DNA from: Escherichia coli
GTDB taxonomy: Bacteria; Pseudomonadota; Gammaproteobacteria; Enterobacterales; Enterobacteriaceae
Direction: 5' to 3' (one strand)
Length of the DNA: 64,000 bases
NCBI RefSeq assembly: GCF_013315695.1
Contig: NZ_CP054353.1
This document shows positions 1-63,364 of the stretch, one piece after another. How positions within the stretch are numbered: the first letter of the stretch is position 1; each line of letters opens with the position of its first letter. A program made the translations under genes and the position numbers. The notes beneath the pieces were generated by a model that was given only the letters and a program-made list of their open reading frames with translations, did no database searches and was not told the origin of the DNA.

Positions 1-122
1 TGTTCAGGAAATGTTTGAAGAGACTGATATGTAGCTGTTTTCAGATTAAACGCCTTGAACCGTCACACTGATTAAGTACAATCCGGCGTGGTTGCGGCTT
101 CCAGATTATAAGAATGATTCCC

Positions 123-548
123 TTACTCACTTTTCAGCGCATTCACTTCTTCTCGTAATTCACTGAGTTCGTTCATTAGTACCAGAATCGCTTCATGATG
201 CAACGCTGCCGCAACGCCGTAAGTATCTGGAGAGAGTACTCCTTCCACCATAGTTCCATCAGGAAGTTGACGATCACCTCCCTCAGTTACTGCCTGGGGG
301 AAGATTTTCTTAACATCCTGCGCGATAAACCCAATCCCCCATTGTCCGGTATCTTTTCGCGTCCAGGAACAACCTTTTAGCATTTCCATCTTACTGAGCG
401 GGTCTCCAATTCTGGACACTCCATCTTTCAGGCGGCCATCTGAATTCGGAACCCATGCTCCAGGCGCTACAGCGTTACCAGTTGATTTCATAAAGCTCCA
501 TGTGGTTCCTGAGCTTGCGTTTGCTACCTGAATATTCCCTGATAAAGA
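123..548 (-). pseudogene. 3' fragment of a phage tail-fibre/tailspike gene (C-terminal intramolecular chaperone domain); 5' part replaced by IS
   Basis: ORF 123..599(-) translation carries NSDGRLKDGV...GIGFIAQDVKKIFPQAV...LMNELSELREEVNALK, matching the conserved C-terminal auto-processing chaperone domain of tail fibres. The first ~17 codons of the listed ORF lie inside the IS inverted repeat, so the true 5' end is missing. Confidence 0.55.
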
Positions 549-1475
<927 letters not shown>

Positions 1476-1602
1476 ATCGGTAGAAAAAAGAAACTTTACC
1501 AGCCTGACTGATCCTTGCGTTCAGCCCATGAGAATCTGAAATGGTTTCGATATCATCTCGTTTCTTGCCCAGGGACTTCCTGAGCTTTGTGTCGGTAATC
1601 AT
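1476..1602 (-). pseudogene. 5' fragment (~42 codons) of a P4-like tyrosine integrase gene, truncated by the IS
   Basis: Minus-strand translation from the ATG at 1602: [43 protein letters not shown], matching the N-terminal arm-binding motif of P4/CP4-57-type integrases (LTDxxIR...DGxGL...G.K.W.FRY). The reading frame then enters the IS right end. Confidence 0.45.
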
Positions 1603-2105
1603 TGAATGTGTACACATCTGGCTTGCGAGTACGCAAAAGTGTACACAAAACTCGTTGCTCAAAGATACCCGCAATGTAACACTTGTACTCGAAGTGTGAT
1701 GGCTTAGGGGCTGAAAGGCAGATGGCGTAAGGGTTCAACGTAACAGAACGTTTTTATGCGAAATTCTTCGAAATGGTCTGAATGACATTTTAAGAAAGTG
1801 TTCTGAATAGAAATTCAATATTTAAGGGCACGGTTTTTGCAACCGTGTTCTTGTTTGGCCTTTCCTTATAGGTCGGTCAGTGCATTCACCACCACAAGCA
1901 GATAATAACTTTATCTGTATTTCTTTATATGATGTGAACATATTCAGGAAAATGCCCTTTCCTGACGCAGAGTTGCTCACTCAAAACCTTTGATTACTGC
2001 GGATAAAGTCATCTACTATTGTTTAACACATTCACGCGCTGCATGTATGTTCAGAAAATGTGCACGTTGAGATAATTAAACAAAATTGTGGTTACAGAGG
2101 TATCA

Positions 2106-3359
2106 GTGAGTCACTGGACTACATTCAAACAAACAGCAACAAAGTTATGGGTGACCCTACGGCACGACATTCTCGCGCTGGCCGTCTTTTTAAATGGATT
2201 GCTTATTTTTAAAACAATCTATGGTATGTCGGTCAATTTGCTTGATATTTTCCATATCAAAGCATTTTCAGAGCTGGATCTCTCCTTGCTGGCAAACGCC
2301 CCACTATTTATGCTCGGCGTATTTCTTGTCCTGAACTCCATTGGCTTACTGTTCCGGGCAAAGCTCGCATGGGCAATCAGTATCATTTTGTTGTTGATAG
2401 CGCTAATTTACACTCTGCATTTTTATCCCTGGCTGAAATTTAGTATTGGATTTTGCATTTTTACGCTGGTGTTTTTGCTGATACTGCGCAAAGACTTCTC
2501 CCACAGTAGCGCAGCAGCCGGGACAATTTTCGCATTTATTAGTTTCACGACGTTACTGTTTTACTCCACTTACGGTGCGCTTTATTTAAGCGAAGGTTTT
2601 AATCCGCGAATAGAAAGTTTGATGACCGCGTTCTATTTTTCGATAGAAACCATGTCAACCGTCGGCTATGGCGATATTGTCCCTGTTTCTGAATCAGCAC
2701 GATTGTTCACTATTTCGGTCATTATTTCCGGCATTACCGTTTTTGCCACCTCTATGACCTCAATTTTTGGTCCGCTTATCCGCGGGGGATTCAACAAACT
2801 TGTAAAAGGAAACAATCATACAATGCATCGTAAAGATCATTTTATTGTTTGCGGACATTCGACTCTCGCCATCAATACGATCCTGCAACTGAATCAACGC
2901 GGACAAAACGTTACGGTTATCAGCAACTTGCCTGAAGATGATATCAAGCAACTTGAGCAACGCTTAGGCGATAACGCCGATGTTATCCCCGGTGACAGTA
3001 ATGACAGTTCAGTGTTAAAGAAAGCGGGAATCGATCGTTGCCGGGCCATTCTGGCGCTGAGTGATAACGATGCAGATAACGCGTTTGTTGTACTCTCGGC
3101 AAAAGATATGAGCAGTGATGTCAAAACAGTTCTCGCCGTCAGTGATAGCAAAAACCTGAATAAGATTAAGATGGTACATCCGGATATCATTCTCTCACCA
3201 CAACTGTTTGGCAGCGAAATTCTGGCGCGAGTTTTAAATGGTGAAGAGATTAATAATGATATGCTCGTTTCAATGTTGTTGAACTCCGGTCATGGCATTT
3301 TCAGCGATAACGATGAACAAGAAACGAAAGCTGAAAGTAAAGAATCGGCGCAAAAATAG
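2106..3359 (+). CDS. kch: voltage-gated potassium channel Kch
   Basis: ORF 2088..3359; GTG at 2106 gives 417 aa; TVGYGD K+ selectivity filter, TM segments and a C-terminal RCK/TrkA-like domain. Confidence 0.9.
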   Translation: MSHWTTFKQTATKLWVTLRHDILALAVFLNGLLIFKTIYGMSVNLLDIFHIKAFSELDLSLLANAPLFMLGVFLVLNSIGLLFRAKLAWAISIILLLIALIYTLHFYPWLKFSIGFCIFTLVFLLILRKDFSHSSAAAGTIFAFISFTTLLFYSTYGALYLSEGFNPRIESLMTAFYFSIETMSTVGYGDIVPVSESARLFTISVIISGITVFATSMTSIFGPLIRGGFNKLVKGNNHTMHRKDHFIVCGHSTLAINTILQLNQRGQNVTVISNLPEDDIKQLEQRLGDNADVIPGDSNDSSVLKKAGIDRCRAILALSDNDADNAFVVLSAKDMSSDVKTVLAVSDSKNLNKIKMVHPDIILSPQLFGSEILARVLNGEEINNDMLVSMLLNSGHGIFSDNDEQETKAESKESAQK

Positions 3360-3387
3360 AGTTTAAAGACGGAAAAGTAAACTTATT

Positions 3388-3406
3388 GGGCACCGAAATG
3401 GTGCCC
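3388..3406 (+). terminator. stem-loop downstream of kch (GGGCACC-gaaat-GGTGCCC)
   Basis: Perfect 7-bp GC-rich inverted repeat 29 bp after the kch stop; no clean T-run, so weak as an intrinsic terminator. Confidence 0.3.
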
Positions 3407-3729
3407 AGAACATTTAGATATTGTAGATCGCAAACAATAACGAGTTACGCTGTTTGTTTAGAATGCACTTCCTGATGCTGTGGATACGCATATTTCGGCG
3501 CGACTGCCCCTCAAGCCAACGCGATTTACGTCGGCTAGCCTGACGCTGCATGCGCCAGCGCCCCACTTCCGTTCTACTCCGCTTCATGTTAACTACTCTA
3601 TGCAATAACAGAATGGTCATTATACCCCCGCCCCCGACGCTGACCAGTGCTTTTCCCGCGTTTTTATTTGCCAGATGAATCCATATGCGTAAACTCATAA
3701 CAATGCGCTTTCAAAAGGATTTCTAATCT

Positions 3730-5554
<1,825 letters not shown>

Positions 5555-15771: not shown

Positions 15772-17197
15772 TAATGCCAGTCAGTTAAGCAACTGACTGG
15801 CTCTTTTTCGGGGCTGTGGGGTATTTCCAGGGCCTCTCCTTTACCACTCTCGGGAAGGCCCTTTCCCTTCTTGTCGGTAATTTCACAAGTTGTCCCATAC
15901 TTGCAAGATCGCGCATCAGCTCCGGTATACGTCCCGGTGAAGCGCCCTGCAATGTCATCAGCATTCTCATCACCATTCCGCATGATTCTGAGAAACTCAG
16001 TTGATTCGGCCAGTAACCTTTCAGATGTTCCGCCATTTTAATCATCTGATATCTCACCAGATTATAAGCCAGTAAGACACCCCACAGCTCTTGCTCCACA
16101 AGCTCCGGTTTTTTACTTCTCAGCGTCAGCCTGCTCAGTTGCATCGTCTGTTTTATCTCCCTGTATCCCAGTTCGATTTCCCAGCGATGACTGTACAGAT
16201 CCGCCATTTCTCCTCCGGGGAAGCGCATGGCGTCCGTCATCGACGTCAGCAGATGGCAGACTTTTCCTTTGCGCGTCACGGTCAGCAGGCGGGCTGTCAC
16301 TTCATTTCCCAGTCCCGGCCACTTTTTTCGTGCCTGCGGGCTGGTTTTCAGCTTCACCAGATGATCGCCTTTACCCAGTTTTCTGATCTCTTCATATTGC
16401 GCTCCCTTTCTGAGAGGTATCATCCAGTGGCGGTGTTCTCCCGCCAGGCTCCAGGCATTTAACAGTCCCAGTGAGTAATAACCTTTATCCATTAACGTCA
16501 GAGTGTTATCGCCGGTTTGTTCTATAAGTTGCTCAGCAAGCTCATTTTCGCTGTTCTTCATCGTGCCGAAGGCTGCAGCCGTCAGCAGATGGCTGGTCAG
16601 TTCCATCTGGCAGACCATTTTGACCTGCGGGTAGAGCGCCGGGTTCCCGGCATGTGTCTGGCGGGGGAAGGCTGCATCGTTCTCTGGTGTATCCGGTGTG
16701 CGCCAGAACACACCATCGATGGCCAGCAGGGTCAGGCCGCACCAGTGCGGATGCGGCGTGGCGTTATGCCAGAGCTGCGCTGTTTTCGTGAACACGCGGC
16801 GGACAGCCTCACTTCCCAGGCGCTGGCGGGCCTGAATAACGGCACTGGGGGCAACGAAGGGGCGATTGCCCGGCAGCATGATGTCCAGGCGATTCACAAT
16901 CTGGTGAAGAGGTTCTTTACGCTCAAGCGCCATGCCAACAATACACCAGACCATCATTTCGAGGGGAAGACGGCGCTTGCGTAGCGTTACAGTACCTGAT
17001 TCGGCAAGGCAACGAGAGATGAGTTCGGGGTCGAGGTAATCCCCCAGAGAAGTCAGTGGGTTACGCAGAGAATCGTAACGGGATACCAGATCAAGAGCCT
17101 GTCCAATGTGCATAAAAAAATCCGGAAACAAGTGAGCGTTTCCGGATTCTTACACAGCCACTGGATCGGTCAACTGATCCTTAACTGATCGGCATTA
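15772..17197 (-). mobile_element. IS4 insertion sequence, complete (1426 bp)
   Basis: Imperfect terminal inverted repeats TAATGCC(A/G)(G/A)TCAGTTAAG at both ends, intact transposase, perfect 12-bp target duplication; length matches IS4. Confidence 0.85.
15785..17113 (-). CDS. insG: IS4 transposase
   Basis: ORF 15785..17131; start at [10 protein letters not shown] gives 442 aa; recalled as the IS4 InsG sequence. Confidence 0.85.
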
Positions 17198-23942: not shown

Positions 23943-23992
23943 GCGCCCCGCTTCCCGATAAGGGAGCAGGCCAGTAAAAAGCATTACCCCGT

Positions 23993-24076
<84 letters not shown>

Positions 24077-24110
24077 TCTCAAGCATTACCTCAAAATTTG
24101 AATTACCCTT

Positions 24111-24195
<85 letters not shown>

Positions 24196-24378
24196 TTACT
24201 TCCTGAAATACTCAAAACCTGTTACTCCGAGCTAATTCTGCCCGATGGCACCGCGTTTACCGGACCTAAAATATCCTCCCCTGAAGTTCGGATAAGCGAA
24301 GCGCATCCGACAACTCACCCCGCACCGTGCCCATAAAAAAACCCCGCCGAAGCAGGGTCTGTGTGAACTAAAATTCGC

Positions 24379-40034: not shown

Positions 40035-40163
40035 CAGTTATATCTCCTCCGATGACGAAAATCGGGGGAGATAATATAAATTCCTGCTTATTGTATTTCT
40101 TCATACTACCTGAACAGGTCGTTAATCAGAATTGCGAGCCTGTACCAGAACCTGCACGAAACC

Positions 40164-40698
40164 ACTGCAACAGCTGTTGAAAAGCCGGAATGTACTCTTT
40201 ATTGCAAACATTTCAGGGATGAAGTGAAGATGAATTGAGACGTAGTATCCACACCAAGCCGGCGTTATCCGGTGAGGCGCAATGTTGCGGGGGCTTTATC
40301 CCTGGTGGCATTGGTTGCTGGAAAGAGAAAACCCCCGCACGTTGAGAGGTACAACCTGACAACAGAACGGGGGCTAATCTTGAACCACAACAATTCAAGA
40401 ATAGCCGCAAAATGTTGTCCTTACAACAAGGCGGCTATATGACGCTCGCGCAGTTTGCCATGATTTTCTGGCACGATCTGGCAGCACCGATCCTGGCGGG
40501 AATTATTACCGCAGTGATTGTCAGCTGGTGGCGTAACCGGAAGTAAGGTGAAAACGGGCGTCAGGCTGCCGTGATGGCAATATGCGCCCGAAACCGGCCG
40601 CAGGGGTAACAGCCTGCGGCCCTTTTTGTCTTTATCTCTTCTGCAAGTAAATATTGGCAACCCGAGCTGGAAGCATCATCCAGAGCACTCATGAAACG
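40164..40698 (+). repeat. LDR (long direct repeat) unit 1, ldr/rdl type I toxin-antitoxin locus
   Basis: 535-bp unit nearly identical to 40699..~41166 (a few SNPs); contains the ldr ORF and its terminator. Unit boundaries approximate. Confidence 0.8.
40439..40546 (+). CDS. ldr: Ldr small toxic peptide (35 aa), type I toxin
   Basis: Encodes MTLAQFAMIFWHDLAAPILAGIITAVIVSWWRNRK; below the length cut-off of the ORF track; followed by hairpin plus T-run terminator (40596..40627). Confidence 0.85.
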   Translation: MTLAQFAMIFWHDLAAPILAGIITAVIVSWWRNRK

Positions 40699-41166
40699 AC
40701 TGTAACAGCTGTTGAAAAACCGGAATGCACTCTTCATTGCAAACATTTCAGGGATGAAGTGAAGATGAATTGAGACGTAGTATCCACACCAAGCCGGCGT
40801 TATCCGGTGAGGCGCAATGTTGCGGGGGCTTTATCCCTGGTGGCATTGGTTGCTGGAAAGAGAAAACCCCCGCACGTTGAGAGGTACAACCTGACAACAG
40901 AACGGGGGCTAATCTTGAACCACAACAATTCAAGAATAGCCGCAAAATGTTGTCCTTACAACAAGGCGGCTATATGACGCTCGCGCAGTTTGCCATGATT
41001 TTCTGGCACGATCTGGCAGCACCGATCCTGGCGGGAATTATTACCGCAGTGATTGTCAGCTGGTGGCGTAACCGGAAGTAAGGTGAAAACGGGCGTCAGG
41101 CTGCCGTGATGGCAATATGCGCCCGAAACCGGCCGCAGGGGTAATAGCCTGCGGCCTTTTTTGTAT
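40699..41166 (+). repeat. LDR unit 2, ldr/rdl type I toxin-antitoxin locus
   Basis: Second tandem copy; ends just past the terminator hairpin (41131..41162), where sequence diverges towards kdsA. Confidence 0.8.
40974..41081 (+). CDS. ldr: Ldr small toxic peptide (35 aa), second copy
   Basis: Identical 35-aa peptide to the first copy, 535 bp downstream. Confidence 0.85.
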   Translation: MTLAQFAMIFWHDLAAPILAGIITAVIVSWWRNRK

Positions 41167-59221: not shown

Positions 59222-59536
59222 ACCACCGTTCGGATGGCATCATTCTGATGTCATCCGGCAATTTACTCTGCACTGATGTTTTTAACTACCTGTTATATTT
59301 TTCACCAAATTATGATGATTTTTCTTCGCTAATCGCGAACCCAACGTCGCTGGCTGGCTAATAAACAGACGTTATTTAATCACTCTATTTCGCCGTTATT
59401 TATCCCTTTAATTCCCTTTTCTAAAATGCCTGTCAGTTCGCAGAATGTGATTTCGATCATGCAGCTAGTGCGATCCTGAACTAAGGTTTTCTGATACTTG
59501 AATACCGTTTTATTCGGTTTCGCCAAAGGAGAATGA

Positions 59537-61236
59537 TTGATGAAATCCCCCGCACCTTCTCGCCCGCAAAAAATGGCGTTAATTCCAGCCTGCATCTTTT
59601 TGTGTTTCGCTGCGCTATCGGTGCAGGCAGAAGAAACATCGGTAACACCACAACCGCCTGATATTTTATTAGGGCCGCTGTTTAATGATGTGCAAAACGC
59701 CAAACTTTTTCCGGACCAAAAAACCTTTGCCGATGCCGTGCCGAACAGCGATCCGCTGATGATCCTTGCTGATTATCGGATGCAGCAAAACCAGAGCGGA
59801 TTTGATCTACGCCATTTCGTTAACGTCAATTTCACCCTGCCGAAAGAGGGCGAGAAATATGTTCCGCCAGAGGGGCAATCACTGCGCGAACATATTGACG
59901 GACTTTGGCCGGTATTAACGCGTTCTACCGAAAATACCGAAAAATGGGATTCTCTGTTACCGCTGCCGGAACCTTATGTCGTGCCGGGCGGACGTTTTCG
60001 CGAGGTATATTACTGGGACAGTTACTTCACCATGTTAGGGCTTGCCGAAAGCGGTCACTGGGATAAAGTCGCGGATATGGTGGCCAATTTTGCTCATGAA
60101 ATAGACACTTACGGTCATATTCCCAACGGCAACCGCAGTTACTATTTAAGCCGCTCGCAGCCGCCCTTCTTTGCCCTGATGGTAGAGTTACTGGCGCAGC
60201 ATGAAGGCGATGCCGCGTTGAAACAATACCTGCCGCAAATGCAAAAAGAATATGCTTACTGGATGGACGGTGTTGAAAACCTGCAAGCCGGACAACAGGA
60301 AAAACGCGTTGTCAAACTTCAGGATGGTACCCTTCTCAACCGCTACTGGGACGATCGCGATACGCCACGACCAGAGTCATGGGTGGAAGATATTGCCACC
60401 GCCAAAAGCAATCCGAATCGACCTGCCACTGAAATTTACCGCGACCTGCGCTCTGCCGCTGCGTCTGGCTGGGATTTCAGCTCGCGCTGGATGGACAATC
60501 CGCAGCAGTTAAATACCTTACGCACCACCAGCATCGTACCGGTCGATCTGAACAGCCTGATGTTTAAAATGGAAAAAATCCTCGCCCGCGCCAGCAAAGC
60601 TGCCGGAGATAACGCGATGGCAAACCAGTACGAAACGCTGGCGAATGCCCGTCAAAAAGGGATCGAAAAATACCTGTGGAACGATCAACAAGGCTGGTAT
60701 GCCGATTACGACCTGAAAAGTCATAAAGTGCGCAATCAGTTAACCGCGGCCGCCCTGTTCCCGCTGTACGTCAATGCGGCAGCGAAAGATCGCGCCAGCA
60801 AAATGGCGACGGCGACGAAAACACATCTGCTGCAACCCGGCGGCCTGAACACCACGTCGGTGAAAAGTGGACAACAATGGGATGCGCCAAACGGCTGGGC
60901 ACCGTTGCAGTGGGTCGCGACAGAAGGATTACAAAACTACGGGCAAAAAGAGGTGGCGATGGACATTAGCTGGCACTTCCTGACCAATGTTCAGCACACC
61001 TATGACCGGGAGAAAAAGCTGGTGGAAAAATATGATGTCAGCGCCACCGGAACGGGGGGCGGGGTGGCGAATATCCATTACAGGATGGCTTTGGCTGGAC
61101 CAATGGCGTGACGCTGAAAATGCTGGATTTGATCTGCCCGAAAGAGCAACCGTGTGACAATGTTCCGGCGACGCGTCCACTCAGTGAATCAACAACACAA
61201 CCGCTAAAACAAAAAGAGGCGGAACCTACGCCTTAA
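59537..61236 (+). pseudogene. treA: periplasmic trehalase treA, disrupted by a 1-nt frameshift near the 3' end
   Basis: ORF 59537..61111 (524 aa) ends ...[20 protein letters not shown]. The +1 frame from ~61069 continues for 55 codons as [37 protein letters not shown]... to a TAA at 61234..61236, which is the expected trehalase C-terminus. The shift lies in the G-rich tract 61055..61069. Confidence 0.6.
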
Positions 61237-61551
61237 CTTTACTGTATATCGAGCAATGCCATTACATGCATAAAATTGGCATTGCTCTTTCTTCACCACG
61301 AAATACCACTCTTTCTACGGTCTATGCCTTTATTTTCTTTTATTAGAGAAGATTTTAATTTTATTTTATCAACTTGTTAATCATTACACCTCTATTTATA
61401 TTTTCCCCCACTCCCCATTCTCCCTGACAATTTTCTTGTGGAACAAAGTGTTATTTAAGCAACAAGCAAATCATTCTGTCTCTTTAGACAAATTTTGGTG
61501 ATGCTGCCAACTTACTGATTTAGTGTATGATGGTGTTTTTGAGGTGCTCCA

Positions 61552-61827
61552 GTGGCTTCTGTTTCTATCAGCTGTCCCTCCTGTTCAGCTACTGACGGGG
61601 TGGTGCGTAACGGCAAAAGCACCGCCGGACATCAGCGCTATCTCTGCTCTCACTGCCGTAAAACATGGCAACTGCAGTTCACTTACACCGCTTCTCAACC
61701 CGGTACGCACCAGAAAATCATTGATATGGCCATGAATGGCGTTGGATGCCGGGCAACAGCCCGCATTATGGGCGTTGGCCTCAACACGATTTTACGTCAC
61801 TTAAAAAACTCAGGCCGCAGTCGGTAA
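61552..61827 (+). CDS. insA: IS1 InsA
   Basis: 91 aa, [43 protein letters not shown]... Confidence 0.9.
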
Positions 61828-62249
61828 CCTCGCGCATACAGCCGGGCAGTGACGTCATCGTCTGCGCGGAAATGGACGAACAGTGGGGCTATGTCGGGGC
61901 TAAATCGCGCCAGCGCTGGCTGTTTTACGCGTATGACAGGCTCCGGAAGACGGTTGTTGCGCACGTATTCGGTGAACGCACTATGGCGACGCTGGGGCGT
62001 CTTATGAGCCTGCTGTCACCCTTTGACGTGGTGATATGGATGACGGATGGCTGGCCGCTGTATGAATCCCGCCTGAAGGGAAAGCTGCACGTAATCAGCA
62101 AGCGATATACGCAGCGAATTGAGCGGCATAACCTGAATCTGAGGCAGCACCTGGCACGGCTGGGACGGAAGTCGCTGTCGTTCTCAAAATCGGTGGAGCT
62201 GCATGACAAAGTCATCGGGCATTATCTGAACATAAAACACTATCAATAA
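61746..62249 (+). CDS. insB: IS1 InsB (transposase reading frame, expressed as InsAB' by -1 frameshifting)
   Basis: 167-aa ORF overlapping the insA 3' end in the -1 frame; recalled InsB sequence. Confidence 0.88.
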
Positions 62250-62341
62250 GTTGGAGTCATTACCCAAATTTTGACATCAAACATGATCTTTTTCGCTATA
62301 TGTGTAAGTATATAGCGGTTTTAATTATCAGGATATTACTT

Positions 62342-63364
62342 ATGTCACTAACCAGACGGAGGTTTACACAGATTCTTGCGTCGACATTGTTCCTGCATCA
62401 TCTGCCGTCCTTTGCACAATCAGTCAAATTCTGGGCCTCACTGACGCTTCCCGAAGCCCAAAACATTACACGCATCGTCAGCGCAGGCGCGCCCGCCGAT
62501 TTACTATTGCTGGCTGTCGCGCCAGAAAAAATGGTCGGTTTTTCCTCTTTTGATTTTGCCCGTCAGGCATTAATTCCATTGCCAGAGCACATTCGCCAGT
62601 TCCCCAGGCTGGGACGACTCGCCGGGCGCGCCAGCACACTCTCGCTGGAAGGGCTTATGGCGTTACATCCCGATTTGGTCGTTGATTGCGGCAATACGGA
62701 TGAAACCTGGATCTCCCAGGCACGGCAGGTTAGCGAACAGACACAAATACCCTGGTTATTGCTTAACGGGAAACTGGAACAATCAGCAGAACAGTTAACA
62801 ACGCTTGGCAAAACGTTAGGCGAAGAGCACCGCGCCACAGAACAAGCCAATCTCGCCAGCCGCTTCGTTGGTGAAGCTCAGGCATTCGCCACCTCACCCG
62901 CCGCTAACCTCAGCTTTTATGCTGCGCGCGGTCCTCGAGGGCTGGAAACGGGCTTACAGGGTTCGTTGCATACCGAGGCGGCAGAATTATTAGGTTTGCA
63001 TAACGTCGCGCAAATAGCCGATCGCCACGGTCTGACACAGGTTTCCATGGAAAATCTCCTGCGCTGGCAGCCGGATATTATTCTGGTTCAGGAGGCCGTT
63101 ACTGCAGATTTTATTCGTCGTGATCCTCTCTGGCAGGGCGTGAAAGCGGTTGCGGAACAACGCATCTTATTTTTAAGTGGCCTGCCCTTTGGCTGGCTGG
63201 ATGCCCCGCCGGGAATCAACCGTCTTCTGGGATTACGCAGACTTCACGCCTGGCTGGATCCCGCCATCAATCGTCAGTTTAAAAGTGACATGCAGCATTA
63301 TGCCCAACTGTTCTGGCATTGTTCACTCAGTGACGCCGACTATCAAAAATTGGTGGCGAGCTAA
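62342..63364 (+). CDS. ABC transporter periplasmic substrate-binding protein, iron-siderophore/cobalamin (TroA-like) family, Tat-type signal
   Basis: ORF 62300..63364; start at MSLTRRRFTQILASTLFLHHLPSFAQ (twin-arginine-like motif); general resemblance to FecB/FhuD/BtuF-class binding proteins; directly followed by a FecCD-type permease. Family assignment is from sequence character only. Confidence 0.6.
   Translation: MSLTRRRFTQILASTLFLHHLPSFAQSVKFWASLTLPEAQNITRIVSAGAPADLLLLAVAPEKMVGFSSFDFARQALIPLPEHIRQFPRLGRLAGRASTLSLEGLMALHPDLVVDCGNTDETWISQARQVSEQTQIPWLLLNGKLEQSAEQLTTLGKTLGEEHRATEQANLASRFVGEAQAFATSPAANLSFYAARGPRGLETGLQGSLHTEAAELLGLHNVAQIADRHGLTQVSMENLLRWQPDIILVQEAVTADFIRRDPLWQGVKAVAEQRILFLSGLPFGWLDAPPGINRLLGLRRLHAWLDPAINRQFKSDMQHYAQLFWHCSLSDADYQKLVAS

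Follow-up and report, generated by a model that had tools for sequence, protein, structure and literature searches.

The DNA analysed here, referred to as the window, is a stretch of 64,000 nucleotides from Escherichia coli, and the locus of interest within it consists of a shortened reading frame of treA (periplasmic alpha,alpha-trehalase, glycoside hydrolase family 37) with its ribosome-binding site, an out-of-frame remnant of the 3' end of the same gene and, further downstream, a copy of the insertion sequence IS1 (Table 1). The ATG from which the treA frame is read is the start annotated by PGAP in the matching RefSeq genomes AF3 and MSB1_4I, and an in-frame TTG is present at 59537. A first-pass annotation of the stretch had placed the end of the trehalase ORF at 61111, which was borne out (the TGA occupies 61109-61111). 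The native length of 565 amino acids given there is that of reference TreA, but the figure of 524 amino acids for the shortened product includes the upstream TTG, and the product is 523 amino acids when counted from the ATG. Alignment to reference treA, which had been proposed as a check, identified the 565-amino-acid form as native, with the 523-amino-acid form not representing the conserved C-terminus.

Table 1. Features of the treA locus, numbered by position in the window
Feature	Position	Strand	Description
Shine-Dalgarno AGGAG	59528..59532	+	7 nt 5' of the treA ATG
Truncated treA reading frame	59540..61111	+	523 codons and stop; signal peptide, native TreA residues 1-508, then 15 aberrant residues
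1-bp deletion site	61062..61063	+	C (third base of codon 508, coding nucleotide 1524) missing between these bases; from alignment to MS 21-1, LR-28 and K-12
Out-of-frame remnant	61069..61236	+	native TreA residues 511-565 (ends AEPTP) and native stop; identical to intact sister allele
IS1	61489..62264		InsA/InsB, joined by the usual programmed frameshift; ~250 bp 3' of treA, before iron ABC transporter operon; target duplication CAAATTTT(G)

The remnant was found to run for 55 codons to a stop at 61234-61236. This continuation of the native C-terminus, and the undamaged state of its frame, had both been described correctly; its label as the +1 frame was not upheld, as a step of -1 leads from the frame of the truncated ORF to that of the remnant (codon starts pass from position mod 3 = 2 to position mod 3 = 1). 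When the two parts were compared with the 569-position NCBIfam TreA model (NF009774), the truncated product was found to cover positions 1-514 with a score of 1143.9 bits (curated cut-off 560; 1260.4 bits for the intact sister allele) and the 55-amino-acid out-of-frame peptide to cover positions 515-569 (E=3.8e-26). The two pieces adjoin cleanly on the model, which identifies the break as a frameshift and not a chance coincidence of ORFs. The 523-amino-acid product is also approximately 99% identical over residues 31-509 to the crystallised E. coli periplasmic trehalase (PDB 2JF4), the mature chain of which begins at residue 31; the signal peptide is retained in the truncated product.

The lesion was located by comparison with the alleles of MS 21-1, LR-28 and K-12, in each of which an intact treA encoding 565 amino acids lies beside dhaM. 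At 61054..61068 the intact alleles read GGGGGGCGGCGGTGGC and the window reads GGGGGGCGGGGTGGC. The first-pass annotation had quoted the latter string as the site of a single-nucleotide frameshift, and the lesion does lie within it, although the string had been assigned to 61055..61069. Read across the deletion, the window is also GGGGGGCGG-GGTGGC, and the site sequence with the deletion is GGCGGGGT, where GGCGGCGGT would be expected of an unbroken gene. In codons, ACG GGG GGC GGC GGT GGC GAA TAT (T G G G G G E Y) has become ACG GGG GGC GGG GTG GCG AAT AT, with GGC GGC GGT GGC changed to GGC GGG GTG GCG at the deletion site. When the missing C is put back, the treA of the window matches the allele of MS 21-1 (WP_000841737.1) at 100% identity across 1,698 nt, and MS 21-1 and LR-28 match the window at every position of the stretch except the deleted C. 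The change at the protein level is p.Gly509ValfsTer16: residues 1-508 are native, 15 aberrant residues are gained and 57 native residues (509-565) are lost, and not approximately 40 lost and 16 gained as had been estimated.

Loss of one G from a G-run had been put forward as the cause of the frameshift. Alignment to the three intact alleles instead identified the missing base as a C between two GG pairs; no homopolymer was shortened, and the loss of the C joined GG and GG into a new run of four G residues. A synthetic allele with five G residues (GGGGG) and the window-type flank was matched exactly by none of 5,317 complete E. coli genomes, and contraction of a G-run was ruled out on these two grounds. 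The treA gene of the window is thus cut short by a real one-base deletion, of a C and not of a G.

The distribution of the deletion was examined in public sequence data. The full 1,700-nt stretch was found, at 100% identity and the same length, in the RefSeq genomes AF3 (UK, blood culture) and MSB1_4I (Australia, rectal swab), and at 99.9% identity and the same length in AF14 and AF10 (both UK, blood). An exact 90-mer centred on the deletion was present in these four (AF3, AF10, AF14 and MSB1_4I) out of the 5,317 complete E. coli genomes which carry the stretch; among the matches listed, the remaining hits span 91 bases, and 5,313 of the 5,317 genomes are without the deletion. In all four carriers treA is annotated by PGAP as a "frameshifted" pseudogene (AF3 AC9VVF_RS07290, MSB1_4I JMX41_RS10775, AF14 AC9VS1_RS19865 and AF10 AC9VSY_RS20070). 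The exact 523-amino-acid protein is encoded on at least 419 public contigs (NCBI, JGI, ENA and Logan), compared with 197 for the intact sister allele, and the truncated proteins in GenBank include ELF21097.1 and EOU93262.1, with one listed source name from strain KTE143. Eight further encoding contigs were read and treA DNA was identical in all of them; four are scaffolds in which the downstream IS1 is interrupted by runs of N, and have the look of short-read assemblies, one is a metagenome scaffold and one is a contig of 5.16 Mb. In total, c.1524delC was seen in the window and in 12 other assemblies that were read. The window is not itself one of the RefSeq genomes, as over 64 kb 12 mismatches and 3 gaps separate it from MSB1_4I, and approximately 17 mismatches and a tRNA-Tyr copy separate it from AF3; it is a separate, non-identical member of the clone and represents an additional independent observation. 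As a separate observation on copy number, 12 of approximately 5,330 treA matches in complete E. coli genomes were on plasmid-labelled records, and some genomes had up to 3 copies.

These data bear directly on the proposal that the gene is intact in the cell and that a base was dropped by a basecaller or polisher, which the first-pass annotation had offered, as a homopolymer sequencing error, among its two readings. The stretch is indeed G-rich (GGGGGGCGGGG) and the frame downstream has no further damage, both of which would fit such an error. The missing base is a C outside any homopolymer, however, and the identical deletion occurs in the window, in four independent complete genomes from two countries, in eight other assemblies, which include short-read scaffolds and a metagenome, and on at least 419 contigs, while 5,313 genomes with essentially the same local context are intact, including MS 21-1, LR-28 and OZ546943. 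The last of these, which has the intact form (1,701 nt), is presumably part of the same ENA accession series (OZ5469xx), judging by the accession alone. The allele also follows linked SNPs and the IS1 marker in its distribution. A deletion outside a homopolymer that recurs across projects and tracks linked markers is not explained by basecalling or polishing error, and this reading, to which practically no probability is attached, can be regarded as effectively refuted already.

To place the deletion among its carriers, an alignment of 8.5 kb was made of the window, AF3, MSB1_4I, AF14, AF10, MS 21-1 and LR-28. The window, AF3 and MSB1_4I were found to have in common two derived SNPs (56661 and 59116) and the 776-bp IS1 insertion, and AF14 and AF10 three private SNPs (57738, 58064 and 60805) with an empty IS1 site. 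AF10 and AF14 are the only carriers with a further change within treA (60805 G>A, Met422Ile). Over 50 kb the two groups of carriers differ from each other at 30-35 sites and each differs from intact MS 21-1 at 19-26 sites. The SNP patterns form a star of three branches (the IS1 subclade, AF10/AF14 and MS 21-1), and none conflicts with a single deletion event. IS1 is carried by the window, AF3, MSB1_4I and several draft genomes but not by AF10, AF14, L012, L017, MS 21-1 or LR-28, a pattern which marks it as younger and as splitting the treA-null clone. The closest reference alleles of treA were those of IAI39, CE10 and SMS-3-5 (99.1-99.4%), which are strains of phylogroup F; no MLST gene lies within the 64-kb window.

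No SNP marking the stem of the deletion clade was found in the 50 kb compared, so a single origin rests on parsimony for the deletion itself. This leaves some room for the view that the site is a recurrent hotspot, with the same C lost independently in different strains and the shared allele not the mark of a clone, and it would fit such a view that the site belongs to a short repeat (GGC GGC GG), in which one base might be lost more readily through transient misalignment. A synthetic 90-mer combining the deletion with the K-12 flank had no exact match in 5,319 genomes, which indicates that the site is not a recurrent hotspot, and the 13 carriers examined differ by 0-1 SNP in treA and have one flanking haplotype in common. 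Independent losses are accordingly considered highly improbable, and descent from one deletion is preferred.

Under descent from a single event, one C would have been deleted from the Gly-codon cluster GGC-GGC-GGT-GGC in the ancestor of the clone, and all descendants of that ancestor, the genome of the window included, would carry the deletion. The first-pass annotation had considered a very recent inactivating mutation, a description that does not hold: the deletion is common to two subclades, is older than the IS1 insertion and is approximately as old as the diversification of the clone, and so did not arise in this isolate. As a rough inference only, 7e-4 differences per site would correspond to an age of decades to centuries, a conversion that would need a clock and a recombination filter. 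No second disabling lesion was seen in any carrier examined; given the small total length of the tree, this allows no conclusion on selection or constraint.

From the end of dhaM (59221) up to the start codon of treA the window did not differ from the intact relatives, and no variable site was found between 59117 and 60804 in the 8.5-kb alignment of carriers and intact relatives. With an upstream region and a ribosome-binding site that match those of the intact relatives exactly, treA is probably still expressed, and the 523-residue protein is probably still made and exported. TreA is needed for the use of external trehalose at high osmolarity and for the recycling of trehalose which has leaked into the periplasm; its loss would affect neither the low-osmolarity TreB/TreC route nor TreF, the cytoplasmic trehalase.

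The sequence of the truncated product was compared with the regions conserved among trehalases. The signature motifs PGGRFxExYxWDxY (149-162) and QWDxPxGWAP (446-455) are both kept, as are Asp312 and Glu496, which act as catalytic acid and base (Gibson et al. 2007, cited in PMC6007452). The Pfam domain PF01204 spans residues 55-532 of the intact protein (model positions 1-511 of 512) and is incomplete in the truncated product, the last 24 residues of the domain being out of frame. The lost part starts inside the glycine-rich GGGGEY region, named among the conserved regions of trehalases (PMC6007452), and also takes GFGWTNGV; GGGGEY and GFGW(T/S)NG are absent from the truncated product and are found only in the out-of-frame remnant (EY at 511, GFGWTNG at 517). 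The block GGGGEY..Q.GFGW(T/S)NGV is conserved in E. coli TreA, in the trehalase of Enterobacter cloacae (5Z66) and in that of Arabidopsis (7E9U).

Given the loss of these conserved motifs and of the last 24 residues of the domain, it is likely that the truncated TreA is inactive or unstable, in which case the clone should fail to hydrolyse periplasmic trehalose. That the catalytic acid and base and approximately 90% of the protein remain would count against predicting a loss of activity from conservation. If the C-terminal 57 residues were dispensable, the truncated enzyme would still be active and the change phenotypically silent; the retention of Asp312, Glu496, both GH37 signature motifs and the signal peptide would agree with this, and the final 33 residues (533-565), beyond the end of the Pfam domain, are variable among E. 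coli lineages. Residues 509-532, by contrast, are within the conserved domain, and fifteen unrelated residues have taken the place of the block 12 residues past the catalytic base, which bacterial and plant trehalases have in common. An active truncated enzyme is for these reasons thought very unlikely, and an inactive or unstable product continues to be favoured.

Functional trehalase could also in theory be obtained by recoding, either by -1 slippage at G_GGG_GGC (61054-61060) or by re-initiation at the GTGA overlap (61108-61111). The zero-frame acG GGG GGC is formally of the type X_XXY_YYZ, and slippage by -1 at this point would yield full-length protein with a single Gly-to-Arg substitution; similarly, the TGA stop overlaps a GTG which opens an ORF of 42 codons in the native frame. 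Against slippage, the 80 nt of RNA downstream fold no better than shuffled sequences (z = 0.03), and the sequence is simply the native gene minus one base, an arrangement which exists only in the mutant allele, so that nothing has been selected to stimulate slippage. All-G heptamers are generally poor shifters in E. coli. A programmed -1 frameshift site was therefore rejected: the heptamer is present, but there is no downstream stimulatory fold and no conservation, other E. coli genomes reading straight through. A split gene joined by the GTGA stop-start overlap was likewise ruled out, as the re-initiated peptide of 42 amino acids has no signal peptide, and would be cytoplasmic, and residues 509-524 are missing from both pieces. 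Rescue by recoding in either form is considered extremely improbable. Reversion is a different matter: a +1 G slip in the new GGGG run (giving GGC GGG GGT GGC) would restore the wild-type protein exactly, and in principle the loss could therefore revert.

It is consequently very probable that the allele is a genuine, vertically inherited loss-of-function allele of treA which goes back to the ancestor of one clone of E. coli isolated from humans (blood and gut), with c.1524delC in all descendants including the genome of the window and with a truncated enzyme that should be inactive or unstable. In kind it is a textbook lineage-specific frameshift pseudogene of a well-characterised gene, which has already been flagged in RefSeq and its truncated protein deposited many times; no published report on the treA frameshift allele was found in a literature search. 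As a pseudogene of a non-essential gene for sugar hydrolysis it has little importance beyond bookkeeping. The c.1524delC allele, with or without the downstream IS1, does offer a clean single-locus marker for the clone and its subclades.

The remainder of the window was also surveyed. The 55 other chromosomal and IS coding sequences annotated in MSB1_4I were full-length and free of internal stops in the window, with the exception of the IS1 transposase (normal programmed frameshift), and narK is intact as well. Besides treA, the annotation of AF3 and MSB1_4I shows one pseudogene in this region, a fragment of a phage integrase at the left end. The statement that treA is the only core gene in the window to fail its expected length was thereby upheld, treA being the sole chromosomal gene there whose frame is broken. 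Beside kch, positions 1..1600 contain the end of a DinI-like gene, a gene with a tail-fibre domain, an IS3-family transposase and the truncated phage integrase fragment (Arm DNA-binding; PGAP pseudogene).

A number of further differences were observed among the members of the clone and their relatives. An IS4 at 15785..17131, between adhE and tdk, is common to the whole clone and to MS 21-1, with two internal SNPs that vary among clone members; as MS 21-1 has intact treA, this IS4 is older than the treA deletion. In the tyrTV region (~23990..24230) two tandem tRNA-Tyr copies are present in the window, MSB1_4I, AF14 and MS 21-1 and one in AF3 (a difference of ~119 bp). In the tandem ldr repeats (40145..40629 and 40680..41164) the window has 6 SNPs and 1 indel of its own within 150 bp (40352..40501), where copy 1 is the same as copy 2; the two copies remain distinct in AF3, MSB1_4I, AF14 and MS 21-1, and the cluster resembles the outcome of gene conversion between these repeats, which encode Ldr toxins, or else an artefact of repeat collapse. 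Three substitutions are private to the window relative to the four relatives compared (33172, 36223 and 45024), affecting NarX (Lys3Thr), YchO (Cys to Tyr at codon 259) and a third codon position of prfA, and none causes a truncation.

Two observations concern the DNA downstream of treA. In L019 (GCA_964044285.1 CAXJQR010000054.1, ~1900..4572), a carrier of the treA deletion, the sequence breaks at the spot occupied by IS1 in the window (CAAATTT|AAGGATG...) and runs on into phage genes for tail-tip, Lom and tail-fibre proteins; a rearrangement mediated by IS1, a prophage junction and an assembly join are all candidate explanations. In MS 21-1 (L005 6031..7053, equivalent to window 62342..63364) the substrate-binding gene of the iron ABC transporter, intact in the window, has an internal stop (window-equivalent 62754 G>A), so that, with the treA deletion of the clone, each of the two sister lineages has lost a different gene at this locus.

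Comparison with known systems was made firstly with the TreA of K-12 (b1197, NP_415715.1; PDB 2JF4/2JG0/2JJB/2WYN), a periplasmic trehalase of family GH37 encoded at the same locus beside dhaKLM. The same signal peptide, signature motifs, Asp312 and Glu496 are found in K-12 TreA and in the window. After repair, the treA of the window is 97.5% identical to that of K-12 at the nucleotide level (43 differences in 1,698 nt); the window has one C fewer at coding nucleotide 1524, and the repaired C-terminal tail (548-562) also differs in sequence. The intact sister WP_000841737.1, present in MS 21-1 and LR-28, is a protein of 565 amino acids, and in neither strain is there an IS1 downstream of treA. 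Among the RefSeq carriers, the treA DNA of AF3 and MSB1_4I is 100% identical to that of the window, with the same downstream IS1, in contrast to AF10 and AF14, which are without IS1.

The nearest experimental counterpart was found in the treA mutants of the extraintestinal pathogenic E. coli strain BEN2908 (MT78), which are reported to have been better able to resist 0.6 M urea, to have produced less type 1 fimbriae and to have colonised the mouse bladder at lower levels (Klemberg et al. 2024, PMC11228248). It might be proposed on this basis that the loss of TreA was selected and not neutral, with trehalose kept in the periplasm conferring better tolerance of urea or osmotic stress on an extraintestinal clone. 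Selection of this kind, if true, would help to account for the larger number of public contigs with the truncated allele (419) than with the intact sister (197), but it is judged rather unlikely. The clone, which has been recovered from blood more than once, does provide a natural treA-null among bloodstream and gut isolates, which could be compared with intact sister strains of the MS 21-1 type for tolerance of urea and osmotic stress and for links to fimbriae and the bladder. The BEN2908 mutants differ from it in being constructed deletions in a different strain, and may serve as a model for this natural treA-null.
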